DNA of 64,000 nucleotides from a bacterium (GCA_965218795.1 OZ244653.1:4800001-4864000), one strand, 5' to 3'. Counted from the first letter of the stretch, positions 40,764 through 57,863 are shown. The notes: generated by a model from the letters alone, not told the origin. Translations and numbers: made by a program.

Positions 40764-40809
40764 TGACGACCTCGGGACCCGTTCAGAGGGACCGTCGGGT
40801 GAGCTTGTT

Positions 40810-40885
40810 TGGTGAGCCGCCAGGGAATCGAACCCCGAACCCACGGATTAAGAGTCCGTTGCTCTGCCAGTTGAGCTAGCGGCCC
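40810..40885 (-). tRNA. tRNA-Lys(CTT)
   Basis: GGGCCGCTAGCTCAA...ACGGA-CTCTTAA-TCCGT...CCA. Confidence 0.95.
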
Positions 40886-40990
40886 ATCTGAATTCGGTGC
40901 ACCCATTGAGGGGAGGCGTTCCGACAGGCGCGCCGGTGGACATCCATCTTCCCCCCCAATGAGCAGGCGCAGCATCATTTTGCCTGCGAA

Positions 40991-41068
40991 TGGGGTGAGC
41001 GAAGGGATTCGAACCCTCGACCCCTGGGACCACAACCCAGTGCTCTAACCAGCTGAGCTACGCTCACC
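40991..41068 (-). tRNA. tRNA-His(GTG)
   Basis: GGTGAGCGTAGCTCAG...CTGGG-TTGTGGT-CCCAG...CCCCA, with an encoded G-1. Confidence 0.95.
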
Positions 41069-41085
41069 GTAAGCTTCAAATGTCA

Positions 41086-41162
<77 letters not shown>

Positions 41163-41239
41163 ATGGAATCAAGAGTTTCCATCGCGCGGAAAGGGTGGGC
41201 AATCCCTGGTTACATCAGCCCTTCCGGGCCTGGATTGAA

Positions 41240-41268
41240 AATCTAACGCCCTATCGGAGGGTTGTCAA
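41240..41268 (-). promoter_or_regulatory. Sigma70 promoter of the tRNA-tig-clpPX-lon cluster
   Basis: TTGACA-N17-TAGATT on the minus strand, about 80 nt upstream of tRNA-Arg. Confidence 0.75.
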
Positions 41269-41455
41269 GGATTCTCCATTCACCTGGGCTTCATCCCTGC
41301 ATTCCAATCCCCGGAGTTGTCAACGGACCGGTGATGCTCTAGGATCACAGCCCGCATCAAGGGCTTCCGAAAAATTCGGACACTCGAGTTCCCTTCCGTT
41401 TCAAGGAGTTCCCTGGTCTTTGGACGATTCCGCCCCTTCCTCTGCGCAGAAGACA

Positions 41456-41875
41456 ATGGCGTATATCCACGCCAACCGTCATCGAATCATCCCTTTCCTC
41501 GTAGTGGGAGGCACGGCTTTCCTGGTGAATTGGGGACTTTTCAAACTGTTTCGGGTAGCGGGGATGACCTCCCGGCCTCAGGTGTTTGGCGCTTTCCTCA
41601 TCTCGATGGAGCTCAGCATCCTCTGTAATTTTGCTCTCCAGTATCAATGGACCTGGAAGGATACGCAGCGGCTGCGGGGGTGGAGCCTTTTCATGAAACT
41701 GGCGGCCTTCCACGGAGCGGTGGGAGCGGGCGCGGTCTTCAGGATGATTCTGTTTCCGATAGGCCAGGTCTTGCGGATTCAGGATGATCTGAATCTGATG
41801 ATCGGCGTCGGAGCCGCAACATTCATAGATTTCCTGCTTTACGACAGAGTCGTTTTCAAAAAGGCTCCGCATTGA
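41456..41875 (+). CDS. GtrA-like small membrane protein (alternative TTG start at 41420)
   Basis: FLVVGGTAFLVNW, SILCNFALQYQWTW, FLLYDRVVFK; about four TM segments. Confidence 0.82.
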   Translation: MAYIHANRHRIIPFLVVGGTAFLVNWGLFKLFRVAGMTSRPQVFGAFLISMELSILCNFALQYQWTWKDTQRLRGWSLFMKLAAFHGAVGAGAVFRMILFPIGQVLRIQDDLNLMIGVGAATFIDFLLYDRVVFKKAPH

Positions 41876-41922
41876 GCAGACAGGAGGTTCCTTTTCCACC
41901 TGCAAAGTGCGTCCAGCCTGGA

Positions 41923-42450: not shown

Positions 42451-42900
42451 TTACATGGTCCCCTTTCCCTTCTTATACGGATCCTTGGTATTTCCCGGCG
42501 CTTAAGTCCCGGATGTGCTGCATCACCGCGTCCTTATCACGCCCACACCGGCCTTGATCATCGCCTTGGCCGATCCCTTGCCCTTGGCGACGTCCCACCA
42601 GGAATTGACGAAGACCTGTGTCACCTGGACACAAGGATTCACGGTCTTGGCCGCTTTTTCATAAGCGTCCATCGAGCCCTCAATGACCGGGAAGGGAAAG
42701 GCGCCGATGGTGTCGACCCTGTTGGTCTTGGTGATTAAGCCCGCCATGACGCCGGCATTCCAACCCTGATCATTGATCGGGCCGGGCAGGACCAGCATGA
42801 TCTTGTCTTTCTTGTCGGCCGCTGTCGAAGTTGCGGGCTACGTCATGACCGAAGCCATGACCATGGCAGCCAGTAAGCCGATTATCCGAAACGGCTTCAT
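42451..42900 (-). pseudogene. Internally deleted paralog of the neighbouring BMP substrate-binding gene
   Basis: MKPFRIIG...*...KDKIMLVLPGPINDQGWNA/GVMAG...FPFPVIEGSMD...HIRDLSAGKY. It carries an in-frame TAG, two deletions of about 90 codons each, and frameshifts. Confidence 0.9.
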
Positions 42901-43237: not shown

Positions 43238-44230
43238 TTACTTCGTTCCCTTCCCGGGCTTGTACGGGTTTTTGTACTTGCCGGCGCTCAGGTCGGCAAT
43301 ATGCCGCTTGACCGCCGCCTTCACCTTCTCAGGCGTGCCCGGGTCATACTTTCCGAGACCGAAGAATTTCTCTTTCCATCCATAGGTCTTGACCTGCGGA
43401 TTCAGTTTCCCTTTGACGTAATCGCTCATGATCGCGGTAAAGAATCTGGGCGTGTAGTAAAGAACGCTCCCAACGACCGTCCCGGGCGCGAGGGAGTGCT
43501 GGTCGGAGATAAATCCGACGGCTTTCACTCCAGCCTCGCGGGCAGCCTGGATGGAGCCGATCCCGACTTGATTGGCAGTCGTCATAATCACGTCCACACC
43601 GGCCTCGATCATCGCCTTCGCCGATTCCTTGCCCTTGGCGACGTCGGACCAGGAGTTGACAAACACCTGTGTCACCTTGACACGAGGATTCACGGTTTTT
43701 GCGCCCTTTTCGAAACCGTCCATCGATCCTTCGATCACCGGGAAGGGAAATCCGCCGATCGTGCCGATCTTATTGCTCTTGGTGCTCAATCCCGCCATGA
43801 CGCCGGCGATCCAGCCGGCTTCCCATTCGCGGAACCCGACCCCCCCAAGGTTTGGCTCGGCCGACTTGATGCCGTTGATGATCCAATACTTGGTCTTGGG
43901 AAACTTCAGAGCGACTTTGGCTGCATAGTCGTTGTACTGGGTCCCATGCGCGATGACCAATTGGTAGCCCTTGGAGCCCAAATCCGTCATGGTGGATTCC
44001 GCATTGGCCGTCTCGATGTTCTCGATGTATTTCATCGTGACGCCAAGGTTCTTTTTGACCTGAAGGAGCCCCTTGTACGCGGTTGCGTTCCAGCTTTGAT
44101 CATTGATGGGACCTGGAAGGACGAGCATGATCTTGTCGCCCTTGCCGGCTGCCGCTACGGTGGAAGGACATGCCCACGCGAGCGACAGGACGAGAACGAA
44201 GAGTACTCCGAGCAGCCGAATTGGTTTCAT
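43238..44230 (-). CDS. BMP/PnrA-family ABC substrate-binding protein (nucleoside-type)
   Basis: Signal peptide, GPINDQSWNA, LVIAHG, FREWEAGWIAGVMAG, GVDVI. Confidence 0.9.
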   Translation of the reverse strand: MKPIRLLGVLFVLVLSLAWACPSTVAAAGKGDKIMLVLPGPINDQSWNATAYKGLLQVKKNLGVTMKYIENIETANAESTMTDLGSKGYQLVIAHGTQYNDYAAKVALKFPKTKYWIINGIKSAEPNLGGVGFREWEAGWIAGVMAGLSTKSNKIGTIGGFPFPVIEGSMDGFEKGAKTVNPRVKVTQVFVNSWSDVAKGKESAKAMIEAGVDVIMTTANQVGIGSIQAAREAGVKAVGFISDQHSLAPGTVVGSVLYYTPRFFTAIMSDYVKGKLNPQVKTYGWKEKFFGLGKYDPGTPEKVKAAVKRHIADLSAGKYKNPYKPGKGTK

Positions 44231-44418
44231 GCGCCGTCCCTCCGGTATGAATTTGTTGGTGGCGGTTCCCCATGAAGCGGTGAATCCTTCAGGGGCTCAC
44301 GCTTGAGGCATCGGTGAGGATGCTTTTCGGGAATTGCGCCGAATCTTATTTCAAGGCCAAAAAACTGTCAAGAAGATTAAAGAGATCATGACGGCTGTGA
44401 AAAGTATCGCTCCTGAAC

Positions 44419-45366
44419 CTAGCTCCCGCGTCTGTAAGGAAGACCGAGCGCCTTGGGGTACTCGGTTTTTCCGACGAGTCCGGCCAGCGCGATAATCGTG
44501 AGAACGTAGGGGAGCATGAACAGGAATTCGTAGGGGACGTCGAAACCTCTGGCCTGAAGGCGCAGAGCGATGGCGTCGGCCGTCCCGAAAATGATGGAAG
44601 CGCCCAATACGCCGAAGGGGTTCCACCTGCCGAAAATAACGGCTGCCAACGCAATGAATCCCCGCCCGGCCGTCATATTGTCCGCGAAAAAGTTCAACTG
44701 GCCGATGGAGAGGAAGCAGCCCCCCACGCCCGCCAAAAGCCCCCCAATGGCGGTGCAGAGATAGCGAATCCGTGTGACGCTGATCCCCACGGTATCCGCT
44801 GCTTTCGGATGTTCTCCCACCGTCCGGATCTTCAACCCCACAGGTGTCTTCATCAGGATGAACCATGTCAAGGGCACCAGAATCAGCGCAATATAGACCA
44901 GAGCGCTTTGCTGAAAGACGACTGGGCCCAGGATGGGGATCTCCGACAATCCCGGGACCTTTATCGGTTTGAAGCTCTTGACCGTGACCGGGAGAATCGT
45001 GATGCCGAACACGCCCCTGAAGATAAACGTTGAGAGGCCCAGGGCGAGAATATTGATCGCGACGCCGCTGACAATCTGATCCGCACGCAGTGTGATCGTT
45101 ACATAGGCGTGAATCAGACTCATCAGGATACCTGCAATCATCCCCAGGAGGAGCCCCGCCCAAGGGCTCCCGGTGAACTTGGAACCCAGGACGCCTGCGA
45201 GCGCGCCGATGAGCATCATCCCCTCCACGCCGATGTTGAGCACTCCTGAACGCTCGGCGAACACCTCTCCGAGGGCGGCGAGCAGGATCGGTGTTCCCAG
45301 GCGAAGCCCCGCTGTGAGGAGGGCGATCAGGAATGTCACGGTGAATAACTCGGCGACCTGGCTCAT
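44419..45366 (-). CDS. Nucleoside-type ABC permease
   Basis: ERSGVLNIGVEG, GRGFIALAAVIFGRWNP, PYVLT. Confidence 0.92.
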   Translation of the reverse strand: MSQVAELFTVTFLIALLTAGLRLGTPILLAALGEVFAERSGVLNIGVEGMMLIGALAGVLGSKFTGSPWAGLLLGMIAGILMSLIHAYVTITLRADQIVSGVAINILALGLSTFIFRGVFGITILPVTVKSFKPIKVPGLSEIPILGPVVFQQSALVYIALILVPLTWFILMKTPVGLKIRTVGEHPKAADTVGISVTRIRYLCTAIGGLLAGVGGCFLSIGQLNFFADNMTAGRGFIALAAVIFGRWNPFGVLGASIIFGTADAIALRLQARGFDVPYEFLFMLPYVLTIIALAGLVGKTEYPKALGLPYRRGS

Positions 45367-46451
45367 GATGCGCTCTCAGAACTGCGGAGCCTTCTTGCGA
45401 GGAGGACGTTCAGGACCTCCGAGCCCAATACGAAGAGCACCACAAGTCCCTGGAGGATGTAAATCATCGCAACGGGGACCCCTGCGTTGCGCTGGACCGT
45501 GATCGCCCCCACTCGGAGCGCCCCGAAGAACAGAGCCGCGATCACGACCCCGGCGGGGTGTGTCCTGCCCAGCAGGGCGACGGCAATGGCATCGTAGCCG
45601 TAGCCGGTGGTGATTTTGTCCAGGAGTCGGTGGTGAACCCCGTTCACTTCGCCAAAGCCGGCAATCCCCGCCAACGCTCCGCTGATCGCCATGGCGAGGA
45701 AGAAGCTCCGTCCCACGTGGATTCCCGCATACTCGGCGGCTTCCCTGTTCGCGCCGACCGTGCGGAGGCGATATCCCAATGTTGTGTGGGCGATGAGGTA
45801 GTAGACGACCACGGCAGCCGCCAGGGCGACAAAGAGCCCGATGTGGAGTCGGGTATCGGCCACGAGGTTCGGCAGCCAGGAAATTTCGGGAAACGTGTCG
45901 GTCTTGGGATAGAAACCCGATTTTTCCCGCATGGGAACGTTCACCATGTACCGGACCAGGTTCAACGCGACGTAGTTGAGCATGATGGTGACGATGATCT
46001 CATTCACATCGAGGCGCGCCCGCAGCCATCCGGGGATGCCGCCCCAGATTCCACCCGCCACCATTCCCGCAATTCCGGCCAACAGGATCAAAAGGAAGGG
46101 GGGCAATCCCTGGACGTACAGGCTCACCGCCGCGGCGGCCAGCGAGCCCACGAGAATTTGCCCCTCCGCACCGATGTTGAACAAGCCCGCCTTAAAGGCA
46201 AAGGCGATCCCCAGTCCGGCGAGGAGAAGGGGAGTTGCCTTGACCAGGGTTTCGGTAATGCCGAAGACCGTCCCCACTGAGCCCTCGAACAGGTAACCGT
46301 AAGCGACGAGCGGGTCTTTCCCGATGGCGAGCAGGAGGAAGGCCTCCACGATGAGTGCGCCGATGATGGCCACTATCGGCCCGCTCACTCCAATCAGGGA
46401 GCGGATTCCGCTTTCGCGAAGGCGTTTTTGGATTTCCGCGGCTGTCGTCAT
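45363..46451 (-). CDS. Nucleoside-type ABC permease
   Basis: GLFNIGAEGQ, NEIIVTIMLNY, GYGYDAIAVALLG. Confidence 0.92.
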   Translation of the reverse strand: MTTAAEIQKRLRESGIRSLIGVSGPIVAIIGALIVEAFLLLAIGKDPLVAYGYLFEGSVGTVFGITETLVKATPLLLAGLGIAFAFKAGLFNIGAEGQILVGSLAAAAVSLYVQGLPPFLLILLAGIAGMVAGGIWGGIPGWLRARLDVNEIIVTIMLNYVALNLVRYMVNVPMREKSGFYPKTDTFPEISWLPNLVADTRLHIGLFVALAAAVVVYYLIAHTTLGYRLRTVGANREAAEYAGIHVGRSFFLAMAISGALAGIAGFGEVNGVHHRLLDKITTGYGYDAIAVALLGRTHPAGVVIAALFFGALRVGAITVQRNAGVPVAMIYILQGLVVLFVLGSEVLNVLLARRLRSSESAS

Positions 46452-47968
46452 CGAACACCGCCCATCAAGAGACCAATCTGGTCGATATCCACCTGTCCGG
46501 AATCCATGATGTCCATGAACTCCCCTTCGAAGATGACGGCGATCCGATCCGCCAGCGTGAAAACTTCTGTGAGTTCGGTGGAAACGAGAAGGACCGCCAC
46601 GCCCCTGTCCCGCTCTTCAATCAGTCTTCGGTACACATATTCAATGGCGCCTACATCAAGACCCCGTGTGGGCTGGGCCGCAATCAGCAGGCGCGGTTCT
46701 CGGGAAAGCTCTCGTCCGAGAACCAGTTTTTGTTGATTTCCACCCGAGAGAGAGCCTGCCTGAATGTGGATACCAGGGGCTCTGACGTCATAGCCGACGA
46801 GGATTCGTTCGGCGAAATCTCGAATCTCTCCATGGTTGAGACGCCCGCCGCTGGAAAATGGGGGGCTGCCGTGGACCTGCAGGGCGGCATTTTCCGCCAG
46901 GCTCTGGCTGAGAACCAGGCCGCGACGATGGCGGTCCTCCGGGATGTGCGAGATGCCTCTGCGGTAGCGCTCGCCTGTTGATTTCGAGCTGATGTCCTCG
47001 CCCATGAGGCGCACCCGACCGGCTCTGATGGGGCGAAGCCCCGCGAGGGCTTCCACCAGCTCTGCCTGCCCGTTTCCGTCGACCCCCACAACCCCGAAAA
47101 TTTCGCCCGCCGGGATATCGAAACTCAAGCCCTTCACGGCGGAAAGCCCGCGGTCGTCTTCGACGCTCAACCCCTCGACCTCGAGGACCCGTTCTCCTGT
47201 CAATGCGGCTTCTTTCTCGACGCTCAATATGACGTCCCGTCCGACCATCATCCGGGCGAGCGCTCTTTCGTCGGTCTCTGAGGTTTCGACGGTCTGAATC
47301 TTTCGGCCGTCCCGGAGGACGGTCACGCGATCGCTGACAGCGACAACTTCATTGAGTTTGTGTGTGATGAAGATAACGGATTTTCCCTCTTGCGTGAGAC
47401 GGCGAATCATCCCGAAGAGGTCTTCGACTTCACCCGGTGTGAGGACGGAGCTGGGCTCGTCCAGGATCAGGAGGTCGGCCCCCCGGTACAAGGCCTTGAG
47501 GATCTCGACCCGCTGTTGTTCCCCCACCGAGAGCTCCCAGACATAAGCTTTTGGATCGACCTGCAGGCCGAAGCGGTCACCGAGTTCCCGGATCTCCTTT
47601 TCCGCGCGACCCGTCTCCAGGACAAAGCGCCCCGCCGTTTCCATTCCCATGACAACGTTCTCGATGACAGTATGAGCGGGCACCAGCATGAAATGCTGAT
47701 GGACCATGCCGATCCCGTGAGAAATGGCCTGACGGGGGGAACCGATCCGGACAGGCCGACCGCGCAGGAATATTTCACCTTCGTCCGGGTGAATCAGCCC
47801 ATACAGGATGTTCATCAAAGTGGATTTTCCGGCGCCGTTCTCGCCGAGAAGGGCATGGATCTCTCCGGGCTCCACCGTGAGGTCTACGTGATCGTTGGCG
47901 AGAACACCCGGGAAATTCTTGGTGATCCCCCGCATTTCCAAGGTCGATGTGGATGGATGCGTATCCAT
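46448..47968 (-). CDS. Double-domain ABC ATP-binding protein (CUT2/nucleoside type)
   Basis: GENGAGKST, LSVGEQQRVE, LSGGNQQK, QPTRGLDVG. Confidence 0.95.
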   Translation of the reverse strand: MDTHPSTSTLEMRGITKNFPGVLANDHVDLTVEPGEIHALLGENGAGKSTLMNILYGLIHPDEGEIFLRGRPVRIGSPRQAISHGIGMVHQHFMLVPAHTVIENVVMGMETAGRFVLETGRAEKEIRELGDRFGLQVDPKAYVWELSVGEQQRVEILKALYRGADLLILDEPSSVLTPGEVEDLFGMIRRLTQEGKSVIFITHKLNEVVAVSDRVTVLRDGRKIQTVETSETDERALARMMVGRDVILSVEKEAALTGERVLEVEGLSVEDDRGLSAVKGLSFDIPAGEIFGVVGVDGNGQAELVEALAGLRPIRAGRVRLMGEDISSKSTGERYRRGISHIPEDRHRRGLVLSQSLAENAALQVHGSPPFSSGGRLNHGEIRDFAERILVGYDVRAPGIHIQAGSLSGGNQQKLVLGRELSREPRLLIAAQPTRGLDVGAIEYVYRRLIEERDRGVAVLLVSTELTEVFTLADRIAVIFEGEFMDIMDSGQVDIDQIGLLMGGVR

Positions 47969-48361
47969 GTCTCGGTCATCACTTCGCAGGGTTAGTTTGC
48001 CGGTTCAGGGAGAATCCATCCTTATATACCATAAGAATCACGGGTCGCTTCCAGTCGATATTTGGATCCATGCGATTGGGAGAAGTGGGGATTGGCGCCT
48101 TTGCAGATCCGGGCGCCCCCGAATGTTCCCCGTTCAGAATGGTCTTGGGTCAGGAGCCGCAATTCCTTGACACGATTTTTTTTCTGACTGAGAATTCAAT
48201 CAAGAGCAATCCGGTCAACCAATGGCGGGTTGGCGTTTCCAGTTCGCCCCGGATGATTCAAAGCCGGCTTCTGGATGCAGCCGCGTTGAAATTCGAGTCG
48301 GACGGTATGCCCAGCCGGCGGGACAAGCCATGAGATATCGATTCCTCCATTCGGGAGTGAG

Positions 48362-50959
48362 TTGATGGTCGGTACACTGGACGCTGAAAAAAAGACTGAG
48401 CTGGCGAAGTCCGACGAAGGCTGGGTCCGCTCCGCGTGCATCATCTGCCTGAACCGGTGCGGCATATTGGCGCATCGGACGGCCGACGGGTATGTCGACA
48501 AGATCGTCGGCGATCCGGACAACCCCCACAATCAAGGGAAGACGTGCGCCAAGGGCAACTCGGGGATGGAAGGAATCTCCCCCGAAATCCGGGTGACGAC
48601 GCCCATGCGCCGGACCCATCCGGACAAGGGCATCGGGGTCGATCCGAAGTTTACGCCGATTTCCTGGGATGAAGCCTTGGATGAGATTGCCAAGCGCCTC
48701 AAGGAGGTGCGCGACGATGATCCGCTCAGGCTTCTTTTCTCGACTTTCGACGCCTTCCAGTTGCGCGGCGCTTTCCTTCCCGCTTTCATCAATGGATTCG
48801 GAGCCCCGGGGTACAGTACTTGGTCCGCCCAGATCTTCTGCGGGAATAACGTCCATGGGATTCATTACATGGCGCAGAACGCCTTCGAGGCGATCCCCGA
48901 CGCAGACCACGCCGAATACATCCTCCACTTCGGATCGCAGTTCGGATCGGTTGTTCATTACGACACAATGAGAAGCACGCGGGAGCTCGCAGGGAGGCGG
49001 CCGGGAAAGCTGAAGCAGGTCGTGATCGATCCGATTTGCAGTGCCGCCGCTTCGCGAGCGGAGGAATGGGTGCCCATCCGGCCGGGGACGGACGCCGCCC
49101 TGATCCTGGGTATCGTAGACCAGATGATCAACCACAATGGCCACTGCGACAGGCAGTTTCTTCGACAATTCACGAATGCTCCCTATCTTATCGGCGACGA
49201 TGAGCACTATGTGCGGGACCCCGAGACCGATAAGCCCCTGGTTTGGGATGCTTCCTCGCAGTCGGCCAAACCGTTCAACGCCAATGTCGGCGAATTCGCC
49301 CTGGAGGGTGCCTACGAAGTCAACGGGAAGTCCGTTCGAACCGCGTTTCAGGCCCTCAAAGATCACGTTGGCCGCTATACCCCGGAGTACGTGGAAGAGA
49401 TCACGACCGTGCCGAAGGATACAGTGGTCCGCCTGGCCCGGGAGTTCGGGGAAGCCGCCAGGATCGGCGAGACCCTTGAAATCGACGGCGTCGAGCTCCC
49501 CTTCCGCCCCGCCACGGTGACTTGGTATCGCGGTCTCTCGGCCCACAAGCACTGCTTTCTTTCGGGACTCGCCATCAACCTCCTCCCGACGTTGATCGGA
49601 GGGATGGACGTGCCGGGCGGGTTGCTGGGCGATCCGTATGCCCTCATGGGCAAGGCGGCTTTTGGCCGAAAGTATCAATGCGCGGAAAGTCCGGACGGCC
49701 TCATTGTCCAGGGGATGATTGGAGGCGGCCGCGTCGGGGGCTGCTACCCGCCTCGCAAGGTCCGCGCGCCCATGACGCCGGAGATGTTCGAGCTGATTCC
49801 CTGCGGTCCCTACGGCGCGATCTTTTACCTGCTGACGTCCGAATTCGAGGAGAAGTACAATCCGCCCCCGTTCCCCAGGATGCTCATGCATTACCACTCC
49901 AACCTGGTCAAGACCTCGGGACCTCCGGAGGTGATGGAGCGGTTCATGAAGCGGATCCCATTCGTGGTCTCGATCGTCCGCCGGATGGAGGAAACAGCAG
50001 AATTTGCGGACATTGTCCTCCCGGATCTCCACCACCTGGAACGTCTGGTTCCCTTCGTTTTTCAGCATTACGGGGCCGGAGAGGGGGATCTGACGACTTA
50101 TGGCGCGAAGCCGGTCGTCCACCCGCCGTTCGACCATCCGTTCGAGCCGGAGTACGTGGACGTTATGCAGATCATGCTGGAGCTGGCGAAGCGCGCTGGA
50201 TTCCTCGGCGATTTCTATGAGGCCATTAATACGATTGCGGGCCTGAAGGACGGACAAGAGCTGGACCTCCAGCGGGAATACACCTACCCGGAAATTGTCG
50301 ACCGGCTGCTGAAGAATGAGCTGGGCCCGGAGAAGGGCCTCGACTGGTTCCTGAAAGACGGCCTCTGGACGGATCAAAAGTCCGTCGAAGAGAAGTACCC
50401 GCGTCCCTTCGTTACGGCTCGAACCCACCTCTACTATGAATTCATGAAACGGGCGGGAGAAGACGTGAAAAACGTCACCGAACAGTGCGGCATTCCCTGG
50501 GATACCCAGGATTACCAGACCCTGCCCGACTGGAAGCCGGGACCCGCCTACAAGCGGGAGCCCCCTTACAATCTGTATGTCATCAACATGAAGGTCCCGA
50601 ACCACGCCCTGTCGCACACGCATAAGAACCCGATGCTGCTTTCGCTGTCGGCGAGACATGACGATCTTCGGACGGTTTGGATCAACTCCAAAACCGCGGC
50701 TGAGTGCAGGATTGAGGATGGCGATTCGGTGATCATCGAGACGTTCGAGAAGAGGCGGCAGACGGCAGTGGCCCGGGTGACCGAGCTCGTTCATCCCGAA
50801 GTGCTGGCCACGCAGGGTTGCGGAGGCGGATGGGTGGACGCGACGACCCGGCAGGAGGTGAACTTCAACGCCCTGCTGGCCATCGATGAAGACCATATCG
50901 ATTTTGTGAGCGGCGCGCTCGATTGCGCCATCTCCGCCCGCGTCATCAAGGCCGCATAG
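48362..50959 (+). CDS. Mo/W-bisPGD (DMSO reductase family) oxidoreductase catalytic subunit, PadB-like, no Tat signal
   Basis: SACIICLNRC...C FS0 motif, ISWDEALD, EWVPIRPGTD, ADIVLPD. The segments TNAPYLIG...KPLVWD and IGETLEIDGVELPFRP resemble phenylacetyl-CoA:acceptor oxidoreductase PadB, from recall. Confidence 0.88.
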   Translation: MMVGTLDAEKKTELAKSDEGWVRSACIICLNRCGILAHRTADGYVDKIVGDPDNPHNQGKTCAKGNSGMEGISPEIRVTTPMRRTHPDKGIGVDPKFTPISWDEALDEIAKRLKEVRDDDPLRLLFSTFDAFQLRGAFLPAFINGFGAPGYSTWSAQIFCGNNVHGIHYMAQNAFEAIPDADHAEYILHFGSQFGSVVHYDTMRSTRELAGRRPGKLKQVVIDPICSAAASRAEEWVPIRPGTDAALILGIVDQMINHNGHCDRQFLRQFTNAPYLIGDDEHYVRDPETDKPLVWDASSQSAKPFNANVGEFALEGAYEVNGKSVRTAFQALKDHVGRYTPEYVEEITTVPKDTVVRLAREFGEAARIGETLEIDGVELPFRPATVTWYRGLSAHKHCFLSGLAINLLPTLIGGMDVPGGLLGDPYALMGKAAFGRKYQCAESPDGLIVQGMIGGGRVGGCYPPRKVRAPMTPEMFELIPCGPYGAIFYLLTSEFEEKYNPPPFPRMLMHYHSNLVKTSGPPEVMERFMKRIPFVVSIVRRMEETAEFADIVLPDLHHLERLVPFVFQHYGAGEGDLTTYGAKPVVHPPFDHPFEPEYVDVMQIMLELAKRAGFLGDFYEAINTIAGLKDGQELDLQREYTYPEIVDRLLKNELGPEKGLDWFLKDGLWTDQKSVEEKYPRPFVTARTHLYYEFMKRAGEDVKNVTEQCGIPWDTQDYQTLPDWKPGPAYKREPPYNLYVINMKVPNHALSHTHKNPMLLSLSARHDDLRTVWINSKTAAECRIEDGDSVIIETFEKRRQTAVARVTELVHPEVLATQGCGGGWVDATTRQEVNFNALLAIDEDHIDFVSGALDCAISARVIKAA

Positions 50960-50973
50960 GGAAGGAGTTCGCG

Positions 50974-51633
50974 ATGCCTCGATGGGGAATGGTGATTGAT
51001 CTGACGAAATGCGTCGGGTGCGACGCCTGCACCGTGGCCTGCAAAGTCGAGAATCAGACGCCCGGCGACATCTGGTACGCTCCGGTCATTCAGGAAGAGG
51101 TCGGACAGTACCCCAACGCCCGCATGGTGTTTGTCCCCACGCTGTGCATGCATTGCGAAGACGCCCCGTGCGTGCGGGCCTGCCCGACGAAAGCCTTGAT
51201 GCGCCGGGACGACGGCATCGTCATGTATGAGGAAGACAAGTGTTGCGGCTCGCGCGCGTGCGTGACCGCCTGCCCGTACGACGCCGCCAAGTTTTTCGAG
51301 GGCGAGACGGGCGAAAGCCTGTTCGGCGATGAGCATACGCCGCCCACCGTGGCGGACCGCGGCGCGCGGGAGAAATACGATGCGGGGACGGTCCAAAAGT
51401 GCACGTTCTGCGCACACCGCGTGGATCACGGGATGGACCAGGGCCTCCAAGTCGGCGTCGACCGGGAAGCCACCCCCGCCTGTGTCGTTACCTGCCCGGC
51501 GGAATGCCGAATCTTTGGCGACCTGGATGATCCGGCAAGCAACGCCAGCCGGTATCTGCAGGAGCGGAGAAGCAACGAGGTGCTGCGGCCCGACGCCCAG
51601 ACCCGACCCAAAGTCATTTATGTGGTGGATTGA
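50974..51633 (+). CDS. Four-cluster 4Fe-4S subunit (DmsB/NrfC/PadC type)
   Basis: WGMVIDLTKCVGCDACTVACK, CMHCEDAPCVRACP, KCTFC, PACVVTCP; SD AAGGAG. Confidence 0.95.
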   Translation: MPRWGMVIDLTKCVGCDACTVACKVENQTPGDIWYAPVIQEEVGQYPNARMVFVPTLCMHCEDAPCVRACPTKALMRRDDGIVMYEEDKCCGSRACVTACPYDAAKFFEGETGESLFGDEHTPPTVADRGAREKYDAGTVQKCTFCAHRVDHGMDQGLQVGVDREATPACVVTCPAECRIFGDLDDPASNASRYLQERRSNEVLRPDAQTRPKVIYVVD

Positions 51634-52616
51634 GTGATGGCTTCTGCTGCGCAGCCGGGCGCGATAGTCGCATGACGGTTGGCTCCCCGCACGGGGATTA
51701 CGTGGGGGAATGGAGGATGCGCCCCCGTGTCCAGCGTGTCTGGGACGTTCCCCATGCGAGCTGGTTCACGCTGATGGGGATTGGAGGCGGTCTCTTCGTG
51801 ATCTCCCGCCTGATGGGGATCTCGCATGACCTGGGCCTTTGGTTCGGTCTTCCCGCAGTGGAAATCGTGAGCTTCCTGGCCATTGGCGTGGGTGGGTTGA
51901 TCCTCCTGGCCGACCTGGGAAAACCCTTCCGCTTTCTGCGGGCACTGCTGAATGTGCGCACCTCATGGATATCCCGCGGAGCGGTGGCCGATTTTGTTTT
52001 CCTCGTGCTCGCCGCCTTGCTGATCCTTCCCAATTTGAAATTCGGGGCGGCAATGCCTTTTTCGGCGCTGCCCTGGAAGTCCGAGGCTGTCTCCGGGTTC
52101 GGGCGGTTTTTGGAATTCGTGTCCATCCTTGCCGCGATCATCGTGATGTATTATGCGGGGGCCGTCCTTTCCGACCCGAAATCCATCCCCTATTGGAATT
52201 CCCCGCTGGTCCCGACGCAGTTTGTCCTGTCCTCGGCCGTCATGTCGACGGGGATTCTCTTGATGTTCTACCTGGCGGCTGGAAAGCCCGTCTCGACGGG
52301 CTTGATCGTGACGCAGGCCATCTTCGTCGGATTGCTTCTGGCGGCGCTGGTTTGGCACCTCTCCACACGGAGAGAGAATCCCGGAAAGGCGGAGAGCGTA
52401 AAGCTCCTGTTGCGGGGGAAGTACCGCGGCCTGTTTATCGGGGTCGTCCTCGTCCTGGGAGCGCTGGTTCCTTTTATATCGAGTTGGGCGGCCGCCGTGA
52501 CATCGGGAGCCGCGCAGGTCGCCTGGCTGGTGATCTCCGCGATTCTGTTGTTGGTTCAGGGATATTACCTGCGGCTCCTTACGCTCCGCGTCGGCATCTA
52601 TCCTCCTCTCCGGTAA
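51630..52616 (+). CDS. NrfD/PsrC/DmsC-type membrane anchor
   Basis: LLADLGKPFRF, TSWISRG, IPYWNS; about eight TM helices. Confidence 0.9.
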   Translation: MSDGFCCAAGRDSRMTVGSPHGDYVGEWRMRPRVQRVWDVPHASWFTLMGIGGGLFVISRLMGISHDLGLWFGLPAVEIVSFLAIGVGGLILLADLGKPFRFLRALLNVRTSWISRGAVADFVFLVLAALLILPNLKFGAAMPFSALPWKSEAVSGFGRFLEFVSILAAIIVMYYAGAVLSDPKSIPYWNSPLVPTQFVLSSAVMSTGILLMFYLAAGKPVSTGLIVTQAIFVGLLLAALVWHLSTRRENPGKAESVKLLLRGKYRGLFIGVVLVLGALVPFISSWAAAVTSGAAQVAWLVISAILLLVQGYYLRLLTLRVGIYPPLR

Positions 52617-52626
52617 ACGGTTCCGG

Positions 52627-52926
52627 TTGAACGCGGTGGATCTCAAGATCAGCTACATGGGCCCGCTCCGGCGGGTGATGCGATGCAACGAGGAAAGTCT
52701 CCAGCTCGCGCCCCCGATTACCGTCCGGTCCATATTGGATGAATTGATCCGGGAGCACGGGGAGCATCTGAGGGACGTCTTCTACAGCACCCAAGGCTGG
52801 ATCGATTCTCGGATCCTGTTTCTGATTGACGGGCAAAGACCGGAGGCGCGGGAGGGCCTGGACACGCCGATCAGCGGAGAAGAGAAAATTCAGATTCTCA
52901 TGGGTATCCCGATGTCCGGGGGTTGA
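52627..52926 (+). CDS. MoaD/ThiS-family ubiquitin-like sulfur carrier
   Basis: About 99-aa beta-grasp pattern (ILFLIDG, GLDTPI) ending in the di-glycine MSGG. Confidence 0.88.
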   Translation: MNAVDLKISYMGPLRRVMRCNEESLQLAPPITVRSILDELIREHGEHLRDVFYSTQGWIDSRILFLIDGQRPEAREGLDTPISGEEKIQILMGIPMSGG

Positions 52927-52954
52927 GGGTCTCCCCGGCGGAACAGGATGAGAA

Positions 52955-53455
52955 ATGCGCGATAGCGCCGTTCAACGGGTCATCGGTGGACTGAAAGAGG
53001 CCGGCGTCAGCGTGGCCTGCTACCTGCCGGATTCTTTGTTGAAAGAACTCTATCCCGCGTTGGAGCAGGATCCGGAGATTCGGACCATTCCCGTGACCAA
53101 CGAGGGCGAGGGCGCGGCGATCTGCGGAGGGATCTGGTTGTCGGGGAAGCGTTCCGTCCTCGTCATGGAGAACTCCGGCTTGCGGGCGTCGATTGAGCCC
53201 TTGGCGCGAATGGGGCTCGGCGCGGGTATCCCCGTGATCATGATCATGAGCTATCGGGGAGACCTGGGCGAGAACAACTGGTGGGCCATTCCGCACGGAC
53301 AGACCATGGAACCGCTCCTGCAAGCCATGCGAATCCCTTACCGGATCGTCAACGAGGAAAGCGGCATCGAGCAGGCCATCGTGGACGCCTACGAGTGGTC
53401 CTGTACCGCCTATTATCACTCGGCCGTGGTGCTGGGGGGGAGCGTGGTGCGGTGA
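52955..53455 (+). CDS. TPP-dependent decarboxylase alpha subunit (ComD / sulfopyruvate-phosphonopyruvate decarboxylase-like)
   Basis: LPDS, NEGEGAAICGG, VMENSG, IMSYRG. Confidence 0.88.
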   Translation: MRDSAVQRVIGGLKEAGVSVACYLPDSLLKELYPALEQDPEIRTIPVTNEGEGAAICGGIWLSGKRSVLVMENSGLRASIEPLARMGLGAGIPVIMIMSYRGDLGENNWWAIPHGQTMEPLLQAMRIPYRIVNEESGIEQAIVDAYEWSCTAYYHSAVVLGGSVVR

Positions 53456-54057
53456 GACGTTACGACTGCATGAAGATCCTGGGCTCCAGGCTCAGGGAGG
53501 AACTGGTCATCCTGGCGCTCGGCGGGAGCGTGGATGAATGGTACAACGCCGCGCCGCATATGCGGGATGCGAGCCTCTTTCAGCAGCAGCTCGGCTGCGT
53601 GACCCCCCAGGCGTTCGGGCTCGCCGTCGGGCTGCCGCACCGGAAGATCGTCTCGCTCGATACGGACGGCGGAATGCTCTTCAACCTCGGGATCCTGGCG
53701 ACTCTGGTCAATGAGCAGCCGAAAAACCTCTTCGTCGTCGTCTGGGACAATCAATGCTATTTGTCCATCGGAGGGCCGCCCACCCACACGTCCAGGCGCG
53801 CGGATATCGCGGGGATGGCCCGCGGCACCGGAATCGAGCGCGCCTATACGGTTGACAATCTGGAGGACTTCGAGCGGCTGTGCGACGAAGGTCTTCCGGC
53901 GGACGAGCTCTATCTCATCGTCGCCAAGGTCGAGCCCTCGGTCCATTCGGAGTTGAAACGGAAGCACAGCGACGGGCAGGAGGACAAGTATATCTTCGTC
54001 CGACACGTCGAGGAGACCGAGGGCGTGGTCATCATGGGACCCAGCGAGCACAACTGA
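53452..54057 (+). CDS. TPP-dependent decarboxylase beta subunit (ComE-like); GTG start overlaps the upstream stop
   Basis: GLAVG, DTDGGMLFNLG...VVWDN (variant GDG...N TPP motif), SIGGPPT. Confidence 0.85.
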   Translation: MRRYDCMKILGSRLREELVILALGGSVDEWYNAAPHMRDASLFQQQLGCVTPQAFGLAVGLPHRKIVSLDTDGGMLFNLGILATLVNEQPKNLFVVVWDNQCYLSIGGPPTHTSRRADIAGMARGTGIERAYTVDNLEDFERLCDEGLPADELYLIVAKVEPSVHSELKRKHSDGQEDKYIFVRHVEETEGVVIMGPSEHN

Positions 54058-54238
54058 CTGGGATTCGAGGTTCAGGTTCCTTTTCCATGGTGTGAGCCTG
54101 AAGCCGATTTCGATGGATTCCTTCCTGCTGGCGTGATTCCGGTCTATTCGAGAACCCTGTCTTCCGGGCTTGCGCCTGGATACGCACGGCTGCGCTGTCG
54201 AAGACATAAAGCGCGTTATTTCATCAGTTCAGGGTTTG

Positions 54239-54366
54239 TGTACAGCCAGGCGTCTTCCCGAACAAATGATATTTTGCAAAGGGGAAACGAGCTCCCCCGG
54301 ATGCCTGCCCTCGAATGTCTTCGTCGGGGGCAGAGGGGAGGAGCCGTGACAACGGCAGAGTAGGTG
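54239..54366 (+). mobile_element. IS481-like left end with SD and first transposase codons, interrupted by a REP-like insert
   Basis: TGTACAGCCAGGCGTCTTCCCGAACA matches the end at 57525 at 20/26 positions. GGAGGAGCC-GTG ACA ACG GCA GAG TAG GTG reads MTTAE*V, resembling IS481 MTTxxKV starts. Confidence 0.6.
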
Positions 54367-54737
54367 GACTCCCGCCCCCGGCGTAAGGCCAGGGGGAATG
54401 ACAGATGGGTGGGGTTGCGTGACGCTGTTTCGTCATTCCTGCCTCCTGTCGGAACCATGCAGGGGCAGGCCGCGGGAAGGACGGGTTTGGGGACGCCTCG
54501 TCAAGCGTCCTTCCCCTGGATTCCTGTTGCAGCCTGCCCTTGAATGTCTTGGTCGGGGCGGGAATGGCCGGGTTGGAGGTCGCGCGGCCCATGTTCGTCA
54601 TTCCTGCTTGCCTGCCAGCCTGTCCCCCTGGATTGCTGCAGGAGCCTGTCCTCGAAGGCTTTTATCGGGAGCGGGAATGACCGGGTTGGAGGTCACGCGG
54701 CCCATGTTCGTCATTCCTGCGAAAGCAGGAATCCAGG
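54365..54737. repeat. REP/REPIN-like array left of the Sel1 gene, including inverted-repeat arm 54484-54526 and direct-repeat unit 54627-54737
   Basis: Several TGGATTCC...GGAATGAC / GTCATTCC...GGAATCCA palindromes; a degenerate tandem unit at 54515-54608. Confidence 0.88.
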
Positions 54738-54863
54738 AAGTTGTACGCTTTCGGTTACGGATATCTCCACATCGTCCGTCCCGACAGGCATACGCCGCGG
54801 TGCGCCCCGGTCTGCTTTCATGCGTTGACTGTATCGAGGCGGGCGTCGGCGGAAGATCCCGCG

Positions 54864-57302
54864 TCACTTCCAGCAAACGACAGGAACCGTGAAGCGGCGC
54901 GCGCGGCTTGCCGCGCCCTCGCCTCCGATCCCTTTTCCGGGACTGGCCGTGTTGTAGTCGATGCCGTGAATGTCGAGGAAGCCGCGCACGATGGCCCCCT
55001 TGATCGCGAAGTTCACGTTTTGAGGGATGTCGCCGACCAGTAGCATCGTTTTCAGCGCGTTGAGCTTGGCCACCACGATCCCGATCACGTTGCCGCCCGC
55101 GTCGAGCAGCGGGCCGCCGCTGTTTCCGGGTTGGACGGGAGCCGTGATCTGGAGAACGCGCGGGTTGTCGCCGGGGCCGGCGAGCGCGCTGACAGCGCCG
55201 TCCGTGACGTTGAGGTCGCTCGCGAGCAGGCCGCGGAGAGGGAAGCCGGAGACCGTCACCGGCTCGCCGAGCTTCGCGCGGGTCGATCGGAACGCCGCGC
55301 CCATGCCGTCCGTCCGGCTGGTGGACAGCAGGGCGAGATCATCCGCCTCGCTCACCGCGCGAACGGCGGCGTCCCGGTCTTTCCCCTCGAAGGTGACGGT
55401 GAGCCGCGCGCAGCCGTCGATGACGTGACGGTTGGTGAGAACGTGGCCGCGCGCGTCGGCGAAGAACCCGCTGCCGCTCGCGGCTTTCTCGAGGTCTTGT
55501 CGTCGTTCGCCCTTGCCGGCGGGCGGACTGTCGGCCTTGCGCCCGGTCCCGCCCTCGATGCGGCGCAAAAGCGACGCGCTGAGTTCCTGCGCCCGTGAGA
55601 TCTGGGAGAGGGTCATGCGCCGCCGGATGCTGTCCTTGTTCGTGACGGCGGCTTCGCTTCCTTGCGCCGCGGCAAGGTTGTACCAGGCGTAGGCGCGGAC
55701 GTCATCCTCCGGCACGCCCTCGCCGTTGGCGTACATCACGCCGAGGTTGAGCTGGGCGTTGGCGTGTCCCTGCTCGGCGGCTCGTCGGTACCACTTCACC
55801 GCTTCTCGGTCATCCTCCGGCACGCCCTCGCCATTGGCGTACATCAGGCCGAGGTTGAATTGGGCGTCGGCGAACCCCTGCCCGGCGGCTCGTCGGAACC
55901 ACTTCACGGCTTCGCGGTCATCCTTCGGCACGCCCTCGCCGTTGTCGTACATATTGCCGAGGTTGAACTGGGCGTCGGCGTTCCCCTGCTCGGCTGCTTG
56001 TCGGTACCACTTCACGGCTTCGCGGTCGTCCTCCGGCACGCCCTCGCCATTGTCGTACATATTGCCGAGGTTGAACTGGGCGTCGGCGTTCCCCTGCTCG
56101 GCTGCTTGTCGGTACCACTTCACGGCTTCGCGGTCGTCCTTCGGCACGCCCACGCCTCCGTGGTACATCACGCCGAGCAAGTGCTGGGCAGAGGCGTTCC
56201 CCTGCTCGGCTGCACGTCGGTACCACTTCACGGCTTCGCGGTCGTCCTCCGGCACGCCCTTGCCTATGTGGTACATCAGGCCGAGGATGAGTTGGGCGCC
56301 GGCGTTCCCCTGCCCGGCGGCTCGTCGGTACCATTTCACTGCTTCGCGGTCGTCCTTCGGCACGCCCTCGCCGTTGTAGTACATCCCGCCGAGGTAGAGT
56401 TGGGCGCCGGCATCCCCCTGCCCGGCGGCTCGTCGGTACCACTTCACTGCTTCGCGGTCGTCCTTCGGCACGCCCCTGCCATTGGCGTACATCCCGCCGA
56501 GGGCAACCTGGGCGAGGGCGTTCCCCTGCCCGGCGGCTCGTCGGTACCACTTCACCGCTTCGCGGTCGTCCTTCGGCACGCCCCTGCCATTGGCGTACAT
56601 CGCGCCGAGGGTAGCCTGGGCGCTAGCGTGTCCCTGCCCGGCGGCCTTGCGGAACCACTTCACGGCCTCGCGGTCATCCTTCGGCACGCCCCTGCCCTTG
56701 ACGTACATCCCGCCGAGGGTAGCCTGGGCGAGGGCATCCCCCTGCCCGGCGGCTCGTCGGTACCACTTCACCGCTTCGCGGTCGTCCTTCGGCACGCCGC
56801 TGCCATTGGCGTACATCACGCCGAGGGCAACCTGGGCGAGGGCGAACCCCTTCTCGGCGGCTCGTCGATACCATTTCACCGCTTCGCGGTCATCCTTCGG
56901 CACGCCCCTGCCCTTGGCGTACATCGCGCCGAGGGTAGCCTGGGCGCTAGCGATCCCCTGCCCGGCGGCCTTGCGGAACCACTTCACGGCCTCGCGGTCA
57001 TCCTTCGGCACGCCCTCGCCGTTGGCGTACATCAGGCCGAGGATAGCCTGGGCGAGGGCGAACCCCTTCTCGGCGGCTCGGCGGAACAACTTCGCAGCGG
57101 CAGCGTCATCGCCCCGGTCTCGGTCTTCGATGCCCGCCTGCAAGTCGTCCGAACCCGCCTTCAGGCCCTCCGGCGTCCGGGTCCGGGGCGCCGCGCGGTC
57201 TTCCTCAAGGCCCCGCGTTGGCGGGGAACACGCTGTGAGTCCCAGAAACAGGACAAGGAGCGCGACAGCGCGGCGCGATGCGGAACGGAAATTCACTCTC
57301 AT
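54864..57302 (-). CDS. Lipoprotein with 13 Sel1-like repeats and a C-terminal trypsin-like serine protease
   Basis: Start MRVNF with signal peptide and lipobox LTAC; 36-aa AQxxLGxMYxxGxGVPxDDREAVKW repeats; catalytic triad TNRHV / DDLAL / GNSGGP. Confidence 0.92.
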   Translation of the reverse strand: MRVNFRSASRRAVALLVLFLGLTACSPPTRGLEEDRAAPRTRTPEGLKAGSDDLQAGIEDRDRGDDAAAAKLFRRAAEKGFALAQAILGLMYANGEGVPKDDREAVKWFRKAAGQGIASAQATLGAMYAKGRGVPKDDREAVKWYRRAAEKGFALAQVALGVMYANGSGVPKDDREAVKWYRRAAGQGDALAQATLGGMYVKGRGVPKDDREAVKWFRKAAGQGHASAQATLGAMYANGRGVPKDDREAVKWYRRAAGQGNALAQVALGGMYANGRGVPKDDREAVKWYRRAAGQGDAGAQLYLGGMYYNGEGVPKDDREAVKWYRRAAGQGNAGAQLILGLMYHIGKGVPEDDREAVKWYRRAAEQGNASAQHLLGVMYHGGVGVPKDDREAVKWYRQAAEQGNADAQFNLGNMYDNGEGVPEDDREAVKWYRQAAEQGNADAQFNLGNMYDNGEGVPKDDREAVKWFRRAAGQGFADAQFNLGLMYANGEGVPEDDREAVKWYRRAAEQGHANAQLNLGVMYANGEGVPEDDVRAYAWYNLAAAQGSEAAVTNKDSIRRRMTLSQISRAQELSASLLRRIEGGTGRKADSPPAGKGERRQDLEKAASGSGFFADARGHVLTNRHVIDGCARLTVTFEGKDRDAAVRAVSEADDLALLSTSRTDGMGAAFRSTRAKLGEPVTVSGFPLRGLLASDLNVTDGAVSALAGPGDNPRVLQITAPVQPGNSGGPLLDAGGNVIGIVVAKLNALKTMLLVGDIPQNVNFAIKGAIVRGFLDIHGIDYNTASPGKGIGGEGAASRARRFTVPVVCWK
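55650..57053 (-). repeat. Coding tandem repeat, 13 x 108 bp
   Basis: Near-identical 108-nt units encoding the Sel1 repeats. Confidence 0.95.
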
Positions 57303-57524
57303 GCGGCATTCCCCGAATGGCTCCCGGCTTCGGCTCCGATGGTAGCGGAACATGCTGTTTGACGGGAACCTGAAACGCATGTTGGCCGGATTCGCCTGGT
57401 TTTGGGCAAATATATCTGCTTTCGCGGCCCGGTTCCGACCGGTTTCGTCCCGTCCGGACATCACTGCTCCCTTCACCGTCTCGTTACCCTTCGGTTCGAC
57501 CTGCCGCCGGGAGCGTCCATAACG

Positions 57525-57720: not shown

Positions 57721-57863
57721 CCTGGATTCCTGCTGGAGCCTGTCCTCGAAGGCTTTTATCGGGGGCAGGAATGACCGGGTTGGAGGTCACGCGGCCCATG
57801 TTCGTCATTCCTGCGAAAGCAGGAATCCAGGGAAAGGAACGCTTGACGAGGCGTCCCCAAACC
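57721..57863. repeat. REP/REPIN-like unit right of the Sel1 gene (direct repeat 57721-57831, inverted arm 57820-57863)
   Basis: 107/111 identical to 54627-54737. The reverse complement of 57820-57863 matches 54484-54526, with the outer 25 nt identical. Confidence 0.92.

Follow-up and report, generated by a model that had tools for sequence, protein, structure and literature searches.

An uncharacterised sister family of PadB, predicted to face the cytoplasm, with a Gly-Gly-ended ubiquitin-like protein predicted to reach its metal site

Among the described enzymes closest to the genes reported here, PsrABC, PhsABC and ArrAB are exported by the twin-arginine translocation (Tat) pathway and are periplasmic. 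PadBCD of Thauera, Aromatoleum and Magnetospirillum (the PadB name is attested in the accessible part of PMC4148979) comprises a Tat-less molybdenum bis(pyranopterin guanine dinucleotide) (Mo-bisPGD) enzyme followed by an iron-sulfur (FeS) subunit, and SoeABC has three subunits with a catalytic side predicted to be cytoplasmic (accessible part of PMC8076601). ComDE and RhiEF, the latter a phosphonopyruvate decarboxylase (accessible part of PMC12141560), are thiamine pyrophosphate (TPP) enzymes split into a pyrimidine-binding (PYR) and a pyrophosphate-binding (PP) subunit without a middle domain, and MoaD genes that are fused with tungsten aldehyde oxidoreductase (AOR) genes, or are their strict neighbours, have been read as cofactor supply (Iyer, Burroughs and Aravind 2006, accessible part of PMC1779556). 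Here we describe a six-gene region at positions 48362-54057 of a 64,000-nucleotide stretch of bacterial DNA (GCA_965218795.1 OZ244653.1:4800001-4864000, hereafter the window, with positions counted from its first letter) that encodes a molybdenum enzyme, a MoaD-like protein and a ComDE-like pair; no description of this gene combination was found in the literature, gene tables in supplements not being covered. What emerges most firmly is a sister family of PadB, uncharacterised so far, whose molybdenum enzymes putatively face the cytoplasm and have a dedicated Gly-Gly-ended ubiquitin-like partner, which structure prediction places at the metal site.

The region consists of six co-oriented open reading frames (ORFs), A to F, verified together with their domains at the following positions:

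48362/48365-50959, plus strand: A, Mo-bisPGD catalytic subunit of 865 aa, with its probable start at ATG 48365 behind GGGAG
50971-51633, plus strand: B, ferredoxin-type FeS subunit (poly-ferredoxin) with several Cys-cluster motifs and without a signal peptide (Pfam Fer4_11, 65.3 bits)
51630-52616, plus strand: C, NrfD-type membrane anchor (PF03916, 78.7 bits against a cut-off of 25.8, residues 34-322)
52627-52926, plus strand: D, divergent, putatively ThiS/MoaD-like beta-grasp protein of 99 aa with the C-terminus PMSGG, predicted docking partner of A
52955-53455, plus strand: E, PYR-domain subunit of a split TPP enzyme, ComD/RhiE-like (PF02776 TPP_enzyme_N, 29.5 bits)
53470-54057, plus strand: F, PP-domain, TPP-binding subunit, ComE/RhiF-like (PF02775 TPP_enzyme_C, 50.2 bits)

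The spacers measure 11 (A/B), -4 (B/C), 10 (C/D), 28 (D/E) and 14 bp (E/F), and the ORF calls and Pfam domains bear out what a reading made earlier from the sequence only had noticed, namely six co-oriented genes with overlaps or gaps of at most 28 bp. A matches PF00384 (70.2 bits), PF04879 (45.8) and PF01568 (30.8), and a GGAG-type ribosome-binding site precedes its ATG at 48365; the NCBIfam matches of B are all under cut-off (ArrB 176.9, DsrO 153.4, TtrB 152.2 bits), and none of the six proteins reaches an NCBIfam equivalog cut-off. No twin-arginine leader is present in A (MMVGTLDAEKK...) or B (MPRWGMVIDL...), there being no RR within the first 20 residues, and these N-termini together with the PF03916 match confirm the Tat-less three-subunit layout that the same reading had proposed. 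The A, B and C proteins have the architecture of a Psr-type complex iron-sulfur molybdoenzyme (a Mo-bisPGD subunit that bears the FS0 motif and a Cys ligand, accompanied by an FeS subunit and anchored by an NrfD protein), but A and B do not carry the twin-arginine export motif that goes with that type; Tat-less A and B with an NrfD-type anchor also make up the SoeABC-type layout. Neither promoter-like sites (4, against 2.0 +/- 1.6 expected) nor terminator-like sites (9, against 5.6 +/- 2.5) exceed chance, a TTGACA-17-GAGAAT promoter-like site at 48167-48195 being a mere lead, and the intergenic stretch 5' of A holds just two short palindromes as inverted repeats. The six-gene arrangement itself is more than chance, because the same gene set occurs in three Acidimicrobiia genomes, in differing orders.

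The FS0 cysteines of A are C26/C29/C33/C62, and Cys160 stands at the molybdenum-ligand position; in the family alignment, the FS0 cysteines and C160-G161-N162 are invariant in 24/24 members. C160 is aligned to the ligand Cys of acetylene hydratase and lies within one column of the Cys of Nap, Arr and Psr, residues that we take to be the ligands in these enzymes. The best NCBIfam match of A is PhsA (181 bits against a cut-off of 694), and the best matches among solved structures are ArrA (6.6e-29) and PsrA (1.3e-26), covering mainly residues 20-270. The AlphaFold2 model of A (predicted local distance difference test, pLDDT, 84.9; predicted template modelling score, pTM, 0.88) likewise finds ArrA and PsrA as its best folds (TMq 0.69; TMt 0.80 for PsrA) at 18-21% identity. 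The relatives of A number 1168 proteins at E <= 0.001 among the 8000 candidates scored in a protein collection, about 50 of them at >=62% identity; their sole annotation is 'molybdopterin-dependent oxidoreductase', and they are spread over Nitrospinota, Acidimicrobiia, Chloroflexota, Thaumarchaeota, Binatia, Firmicutes, Deltaproteobacteria and others. A metagenome scan added seven loci, five of them shorter than 2.6 kb. No member of this family is characterised, and none of its solved relatives exceeds 21% identity.

Two trees were built, one with FastTree (119 rows) and one with IQ-TREE (58 rows, LG+G4, with the Shimodaira-Hasegawa-like approximate likelihood ratio test, SH-aLRT). The window's A lies within a Nitrospinota clade (support 100), to which the Acidimicrobiia copies are sister; both are nested in a family of uncharacterised proteins (support 94-96), and this family, with loci L009 and L046, is sister to the PadB clade (SH-aLRT 98; PadB clade itself 100), FastTree being concordant. 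Outside the A family and PadB stand the Psr/Phs-like loci L073 and L080 and a SoeA-like clade (support 100). The PadB reference was recognised by context: at locus L034 of Paramagnetospirillum caucaseum, an A homologue lies 5.8 kb upstream of a PadI equivalog (817 bits against a cut-off of 700) on the same strand. The SoeA-like clade comprises 30 proteobacterial loci (~965-994 aa), and its label is our inference from protein size, taxa and the Tat-less N-termini with FS0, with no characterised sequence behind it; ArrA and PsrA are outside both trees and were judged from hidden Markov model (HMM), structure-profile and fold matches. Ten further molybdenum enzymes, the PadB orthologue and SoeA-like proteins among them, stay under every NCBIfam cut-off; NCBIfam therefore has no PadB or SoeA model by which these clades could be named.

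The comparison with the described enzymes can now be drawn. PadB and A align over their full length (residues 22-854) with a Cys at the ligand position in both. The description of the genes as PadBCD-like stands as far as a sister relationship is meant; membership does not, and A does not nest within a characterised clade, because it falls outside the PadB clade at ~28% identity. 'PadB-like', judged from the trees, is valid for A only in the sense of nearest characterised relative. The PadB clade further differs from the window in lacking both D and the insertion at residues 441-485 of A, and PadI (NF045766) is over cut-off in 0/4 genomes (that of the window, G000, and the Acidimicrobiia genomes G054, G081 and G136; best 135.7 bits), in accordance with the assumption that the oxidative PadEFGHI partner is absent. 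SoeABC shares the three subunits, the predicted cytoplasmic orientation and the FS0 motif but belongs to a separate, more distant clade, with D or E and F beside 0/30 SoeA-like loci. PsrABC, PhsABC and ArrAB (2vpw, 6cz7) share the fold, the Cys ligand, the four-cluster subunit and the NrfD anchor, whereas their identity to A is 18-21% and the match is confined mostly to residues 20-270. As separate observations, the N-termini of two PadB-clade proteins (L034, L018) have CxxC only, without the full FS0 CxxCxxxC, and the window's C is matched by tblastn beside 1/23 PadB-clade loci.

The genome of the window contains four A paralogues (100, 74, 71 and 42% identity), of which two have B and C beside them and three have D. 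The paralogues at G000:C1:921771-926361 (paralogue 2) and 1563200-1565881 (paralogue 3) have 71-74% identical A proteins without B or C, and downstream of paralogue 2 come a chlorohydrolase-family amidohydrolase (474 bits; cut-off 416) and a D copy at 59% identity. Paralogues 2 and 3 may dock on the B-C module of the window or act as soluble enzymes.

The most robust new point concerns D, which is predicted to be a dedicated partner of A, binding it with the Gly-Gly tail at the molybdenum-ligand region. D scores 20.4 bits against ThiS PF02597 (19.5 in the genome scan), short of the 22.5 cut-off, and its putative place in the MoaD/ThiS family has the support of its Gly-Gly end, its atlas features (0.94 to the MoaD/ThiS cluster) and PDB profile matches to MoaD-like proteins, among them archaeal Ta0895 (2.7e-9). 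Since a canonical MoaD lies directly beside MoaE at 3.392 Mb in the same genome, D is an extra, divergent copy and not the housekeeping MoaD. With an HMM of D, a D-like ORF was found adjoining A in 13 family loci, ending in GG with one AG; in the 13 aligned D sequences Gly-Gly is invariant (13/13), two of them carrying a two-residue extension (GGAT and GGSQ), and by tblastn D is beside 0/23 PadB-clade and 0/30 SoeA-like loci. D is tied to A more closely than are B and C, paralogue 2 and locus L004 having A and D without B and C. Complex prediction for A and D gave ipSAE values of 0.87, 0.84 and 0.87, against 0.04 for the best of three controls, with at least 85% of contacts in agreement between runs and a partner pLDDT of at least 84; the ipSAE mark applied is reached by 58/80 solved complexes and 2/110 mismatched pairs, counts that hold only approximately here because our own alignments were used for the A-D prediction. 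A memory of a similar complex is an unlikely source of this score, because D's solved relatives are free MoaD, SAMP and Urm1 proteins or MoaD-MoaE complexes, with no A-D-like complex among them. The predicted interface joins D residues 9-16, 50-73 and 89-99 with A residues 120-175, 441-485, 617-627 and 697-701; its A side includes C160, G161, H165 and residue 166, and the D tail (93-99) lies in the contact region. Residues 441-485 are the family-specific insertion, gapped in PadB, SoeA-like and Psr-like sequences. Conservation of the interface is suggestive only in favour of the contact: the ratio of identity at the interface to that elsewhere is 1.11-1.12 in two Acidimicrobiia orthologues, against 0.80-0.92 in close copies without a detected D, and in distant groups the two ranges overlap (0.51-1.05 versus 0.46-0.98). 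As judged from the accessible part of PMC1779556, D resembles the AOR-linked MoaD proteins in being a second MoaD-like gene, apart from the cofactor operon and tied to one pterin enzyme; those proteins have an AOR-family partner and often MoeB or MoaE nearby, whereas D has a Mo-bisPGD partner, no MoeB or MoaE near it, and a predicted direct complex with insertion of its tail. A MoaD carrier coupled to the pathway had been suggested from the sequence alone; D is real and recurs by A, and it is better read as a dedicated partner of A.

E and F form a two-subunit PYR plus PP enzyme with the motifs DGG-x24-DN (F) and NEGEG (E), which we presume to be the TPP/Mg-binding motifs. They share with ComDE and RhiEF the split subunits without a middle domain. 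The best NCBIfam match of E is TIGR03845 (ComD; 105.9 bits against a cut-off of 147.95), and F matches PRK06163 best (96.3, cut-off 240) and TIGR03846 (ComE) second (87.7, cut-off 221.5), so that, unlike ComDE, both stay under the ComD and ComE cut-offs, and no coenzyme M or phosphonate context is present. Matches in the PDB are few: E matches 9u8q best (4e-21), an entry for which no function was found in the literature, and RhiE (9iz3, 1e-11), and F matches RhiF (9iz3_B, 9e-11). Linkage to genes A to D was assessed in the three of 301 sampled Acidimicrobiia genomes that have A at E <= 1e-150, namely G054 (locus L001), G136 (L119) and G081 (L120). Each has a single ComD-like gene, within 5 kb of A (3/3), and all three loci hold genes A to D, E and F, a Bmp-type ATP-binding cassette importer, one or two deaminase-type amidohydrolases, the large and flavin (FAD) subunits of a xanthine dehydrogenase (XDH)-family enzyme and an aldehyde dehydrogenase (ALDH), in a gene order that differs in each. 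The tree of E mirrors that of A. The linkage of a comDE-like pair to the molybdenum enzyme, which the sequence-only reading had emphasised, is therefore conserved in Acidimicrobiia, and it is absent in 3/3 related Nitrospinota genomes that have an EF orthologue; the coupling is well supported in the former class and circumstantial only in the window genome.

Four sequencing runs were searched for transcripts, two being metatranscriptomic on record and labelled sponge metagenome and two being guessed to be RNA. Eighteen short RNA-library contigs were obtained (16 at >=99% identity, two at 95-99%), touching all six genes, and single records bridge A/B (50918-51077), B/C (51510-51681) and the C/D spacer (52429-52654), without amounting to proof of single transcripts. 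None of the 18 covers the D/E or E/F spacer, and contigs of this kind cannot show absence.

Upstream of E, the window genome contains a block that is missing at this place in two related genomes, and its importer has homologues adjoining genes A to D in L001, L119 and L120:

41877-52951: 11.1-kb block with a Bmp remnant, a Bmp-type ATP-binding cassette importer and genes A to D
43238-47968, minus strand: Bmp/PnrA-family importer, divergent from A (PF02608 225 bits, PF02653 twice, PF00005)
43238-44230, minus strand: substrate-binding protein of the importer (PF02608)
44419-45366 and 45363-46451, minus strand: permeases of the importer (PF02653)
46448-47968, minus strand: double ATPase of the importer (PF00005)

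In NCBIfam, the importer has a weak 'B6 SBP' match (104 bits against a cut-off of 400).

The results above establish the gene content, the family placement, the conservation of linkage and the predicted A-D interface; the direction of electron flow, the substrate class, the role of D and the EF step are inferred. In the proposed mechanism, A, B and C would form a cytoplasm-facing, quinone-linked Mo bis-pyranopterin enzyme, in which electrons may pass from molybdenum to FS0, then to the FeS clusters of B and to the NrfD anchor C; this enzyme is most likely a dehydrogenase or hydroxylase that uses water and needs no O2. The predicted seat of D is the insertion specific to the family, where the substrate funnel opens, with its Gly-Gly tail reaching down to the molybdenum-ligand Cys; D may serve A as a subunit or as a maturation factor specific to it, a sulfur donor or a funnel plug for instance. 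Genes A to D and the Bmp-type importer move as one block, which in the window genome stands directly upstream of a resident EF pair. The most likely role of the enzyme is one oxidative step in the catabolism of an N-heterocycle (purine-like) taken up by the cell, or of an organic acid derived from it, and E and F may decarboxylate a 2-oxo acid to an aldehyde, which would then be oxidised. Taken as a whole, a molybdenum enzyme with a dedicated D and an EF step in the catabolism of an imported N-heterocycle or derived organic acid is the best explanation we can offer, tentatively held at a little short of even chances. If true, a Mo-bisPGD enzyme would be built or fed in a new way, by a dedicated ubiquitin-like partner reaching its metal site, and the Acidimicrobiia cluster would point to an O2-independent step of heterocycle (possibly purine) breakdown missing from pathway maps; the molybdenum enzyme, with a thiamine-dependent decarboxylase next to it, may belong to a degradative pathway not yet described.

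The sequence from 2-oxo acid to aldehyde to acid had been suggested earlier and gains support from the genomes. An ALDH resembling succinate-semialdehyde dehydrogenase (SSADH) is present in 3/3 Acidimicrobiia clusters (582 bits against 646), and the XDH of L120, scoring 830.5, exceeds the PucD cut-off of 783.65; the Acidimicrobiia amidohydrolases match 8-oxoguanine and 5'-deoxyadenosine deaminase models best, under cut-off. In the window genome (5.17 Mb) several catabolic families are strongly enlarged, with ~70 XDH/CoxL-like large subunits, ~40 UbiD-like and ~22 HyuA-like proteins and no fewer than 25 binding proteins of the Bmp type. A search of it for full-length NAD(P) aldehyde dehydrogenase homologues gave none, which fits oxidation of the aldehyde by an XDH-family enzyme. 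A possible pathway member of this kind lies across the end of the window:

63178-64000, minus strand: XDH-family Mo-binding subunit, C-terminal part (PF20256 198 bits; gene extends to 65658)

The entire protein (63178-65658) scores 612.8 against 4-hydroxybenzoyl-CoA reductase alpha (cut-off 994.55) and 555.8 against XdhA (cut-off 780).

Several observations weigh against the explanation offered above. A D-like ORF was not found at ~9 family loci with adequate flanks, and no E1, JAMM, MoaE or MoeB gene that could serve the activation of D is present in the clusters; the single strong ThiF-family match per genome is distant (at 1.748 Mb in the window genome), and D has no E1 (MoeB/ThiF) or acceptor (MoaE/ThiG) beside it. 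The geometry of the tail in the complex, modelled without cofactors, may be an artefact of an empty cavity, and the RNA-library contigs, for which there was no silent-stretch control, may be DNA-derived. UbiD and XDH genes occur near A in 10/34 and 9/34 family loci, respectively (against 0/23 and 3/23 PadB-clade and 0/30 and 0/30 SoeA-like loci), but were downgraded as a family-level signal, because with ~40 and ~70 such genes in the genome these neighbours are weak evidence in this lineage. Further points concern the junction upstream of E. Two genomes of the window's own family, G002 (L129) and G001 (L131), match the window over 32094-41876 in blastn (a stretch holding ThrRS, Lon, ClpX, ClpP, trigger factor, four tRNAs and a GtrA-like gene); their match resumes at 52952/52967-54057, the EF stretch 52952-54057 being 76-77% identical in nucleotides; they are thus collinear with it on both sides, without the 11.1-kb block. 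In a third related genome, G006, the break falls exactly at the D/E spacer: XDH genes come after D, and the EF pair occupies a different contig, with UbiD next to follow. The D/E spacer is therefore an exact boundary of two synteny blocks and the 'operon' a lineage-specific juxtaposition; the D/E adjacency, as read from this collinearity, stems from an 11-kb insertion or translocation, and the six-gene array is the junction of two modules. In 3/3 related Nitrospinota genomes (G001, G002, G006), the EF orthologue (E ~80%, F 84-85% identity) is not beside genes A to D, and G002 has no window-type A at E <= 1e-100 while keeping EF (E 80%, F 84%); E and F can therefore work without A to D, because their orthologue stands apart in these genomes. 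A truncated A joined to a permease fragment on G001:C106 (L101, L132) is a rearrangement or misassembly and was set aside as uninformative.

These junctions lend most weight to the alternative that E and F are independent of the molybdenum enzyme, a mobile block of importer and genes A to D having landed or stayed in a 92-bp spacer upstream of a decarboxylase that serves another pathway. The at least 11 ComD-like genes of the window genome, none of which is by the other three A paralogues, point the same way. In the three Acidimicrobiia genomes, however, the sole ComD-like gene is no more than 5 kb away from A, although each genome has its own gene order; that a random 11-kb insertion should stop 28 bp short of one of the four co-orthologous EF pairs of a 5.17-Mb genome is very unlikely, and the terminator scan found no terminator-like site between D and E. 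We regard independence of the EF pair as unlikely, if still worth serious consideration.

A second alternative concerns D, which might be a protein-borne substrate or carrier, with A oxidising a group or thiocarboxylate on its C-terminal Gly, so that D would take the role that CoA has for PadBCD. The molybdenum-enzyme family would then perform PadB-type alpha-oxidation or sulfur transfer on a D-tethered group and not on a CoA ester or free molecule, which strikes us as improbable. The sister enzyme PadB acts on a carrier-bound (CoA) acid, the tail 93-99 and A residues C160, G161 and H165 all fall in the predicted interface, and both the invariant Gly-Gly and the occurrence of A with D only, as in paralogue 2 and L004, are in agreement with such a role. 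However, no loading (E1, ATP-grasp) or release (JAMM) enzyme is conserved in the clusters, one-to-one and translationally close genes suit a subunit, and the complex was modelled without cofactors. A carrier function of D is accordingly given a low probability, and a dedicated subunit or maturation factor is retained as the preferred role.

A reductive function, in which A, B and C would use quinol to reduce an oxyanion, N-oxide or S-oxide in the cytoplasm, much as Psr, Phs, Arr or Dms are reductases, draws on the best HMM and fold matches, which are to reductases (PhsA 181 bits; ArrA and PsrA, TMq 0.69). The similarity is concentrated in the N-terminal 250 residues, at 18-21% identity, the known relatives facing the cytoplasmic side, PadBCD and SoeABC (for the latter, accessible part of PMC8076601), are dehydrogenases, and the sister clade is PadB within a catabolic gene context, making the reductive direction very improbable. 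Sponge-metagenome-labelled RNA libraries contain the sequence, as noted above. Sponges are rich in sulfonates, and the sequence-only reading had named an organosulfur route as its alternative. That route, with A to C as a SoeABC-like sulfite dehydrogenase and E and F as sulfopyruvate decarboxylase in sulfolactate or cysteate degradation, is unsupported and the least probable of all, for although the Tat-less three-subunit layout recalls SoeABC (orientation from the accessible part of PMC8076601) and TIGR03845 is best for E and TIGR03846 second for F, A lies outside the SoeA-like clade (support 100), E and F stay under the ComDE cut-offs (105.9 versus 147.95 and 87.7 versus 221.5), Xsc is over cut-off in 0/5 genomes (best 345 bits against 676), and the conserved neighbours are deaminase-type amidohydrolases, XDH (PucD-type where scored) and the SSADH-like ALDH. 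Altogether, the interpretation first drawn from the sequence is partly supported.

Past the end of the window, a minus-strand island (L122, 62000-82000 extended) comprises XDH, CoxM, UbiD, a 130-aa ORF, an acyl-CoA-ligase-like gene, HyuB and HyuA, and continues with a hydantoinase-like amidohydrolase and a second UbiD; the statement that no CoA ligase is present in the window is thus to be qualified, the CoA-ligase-like gene lying 5 kb past the window end. At the left edge of the 11.1-kb block, a Bmp binding-protein remnant (42523-42894, minus strand) is internally deleted and 54-77% identical to parts of 43238-44230, and four tRNA genes (Leu, Lys, His, Arg; 40680-41162, minus strand) stand ~700 bp from the left border, a cluster that may be an integration hot spot. 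Directly 3' of F, the stretch 54058-54900 consists of dispersed repeat units with 129 genome-wide blastn matches, including window 57721-57844, and a 164-aa ORF within it (54398-54892) is probably not a gene. It is followed at 54864-57476, on the minus strand, by a protein of 870 aa that combines 13 Sel1 repeats with a trypsin-like protease domain at its C-terminus, close to the six-gene stretch (47900-54200) of which the sponge-labelled RNA libraries contain near-identical pieces; Sel1-type repeat proteins are typical of host-associated bacteria.

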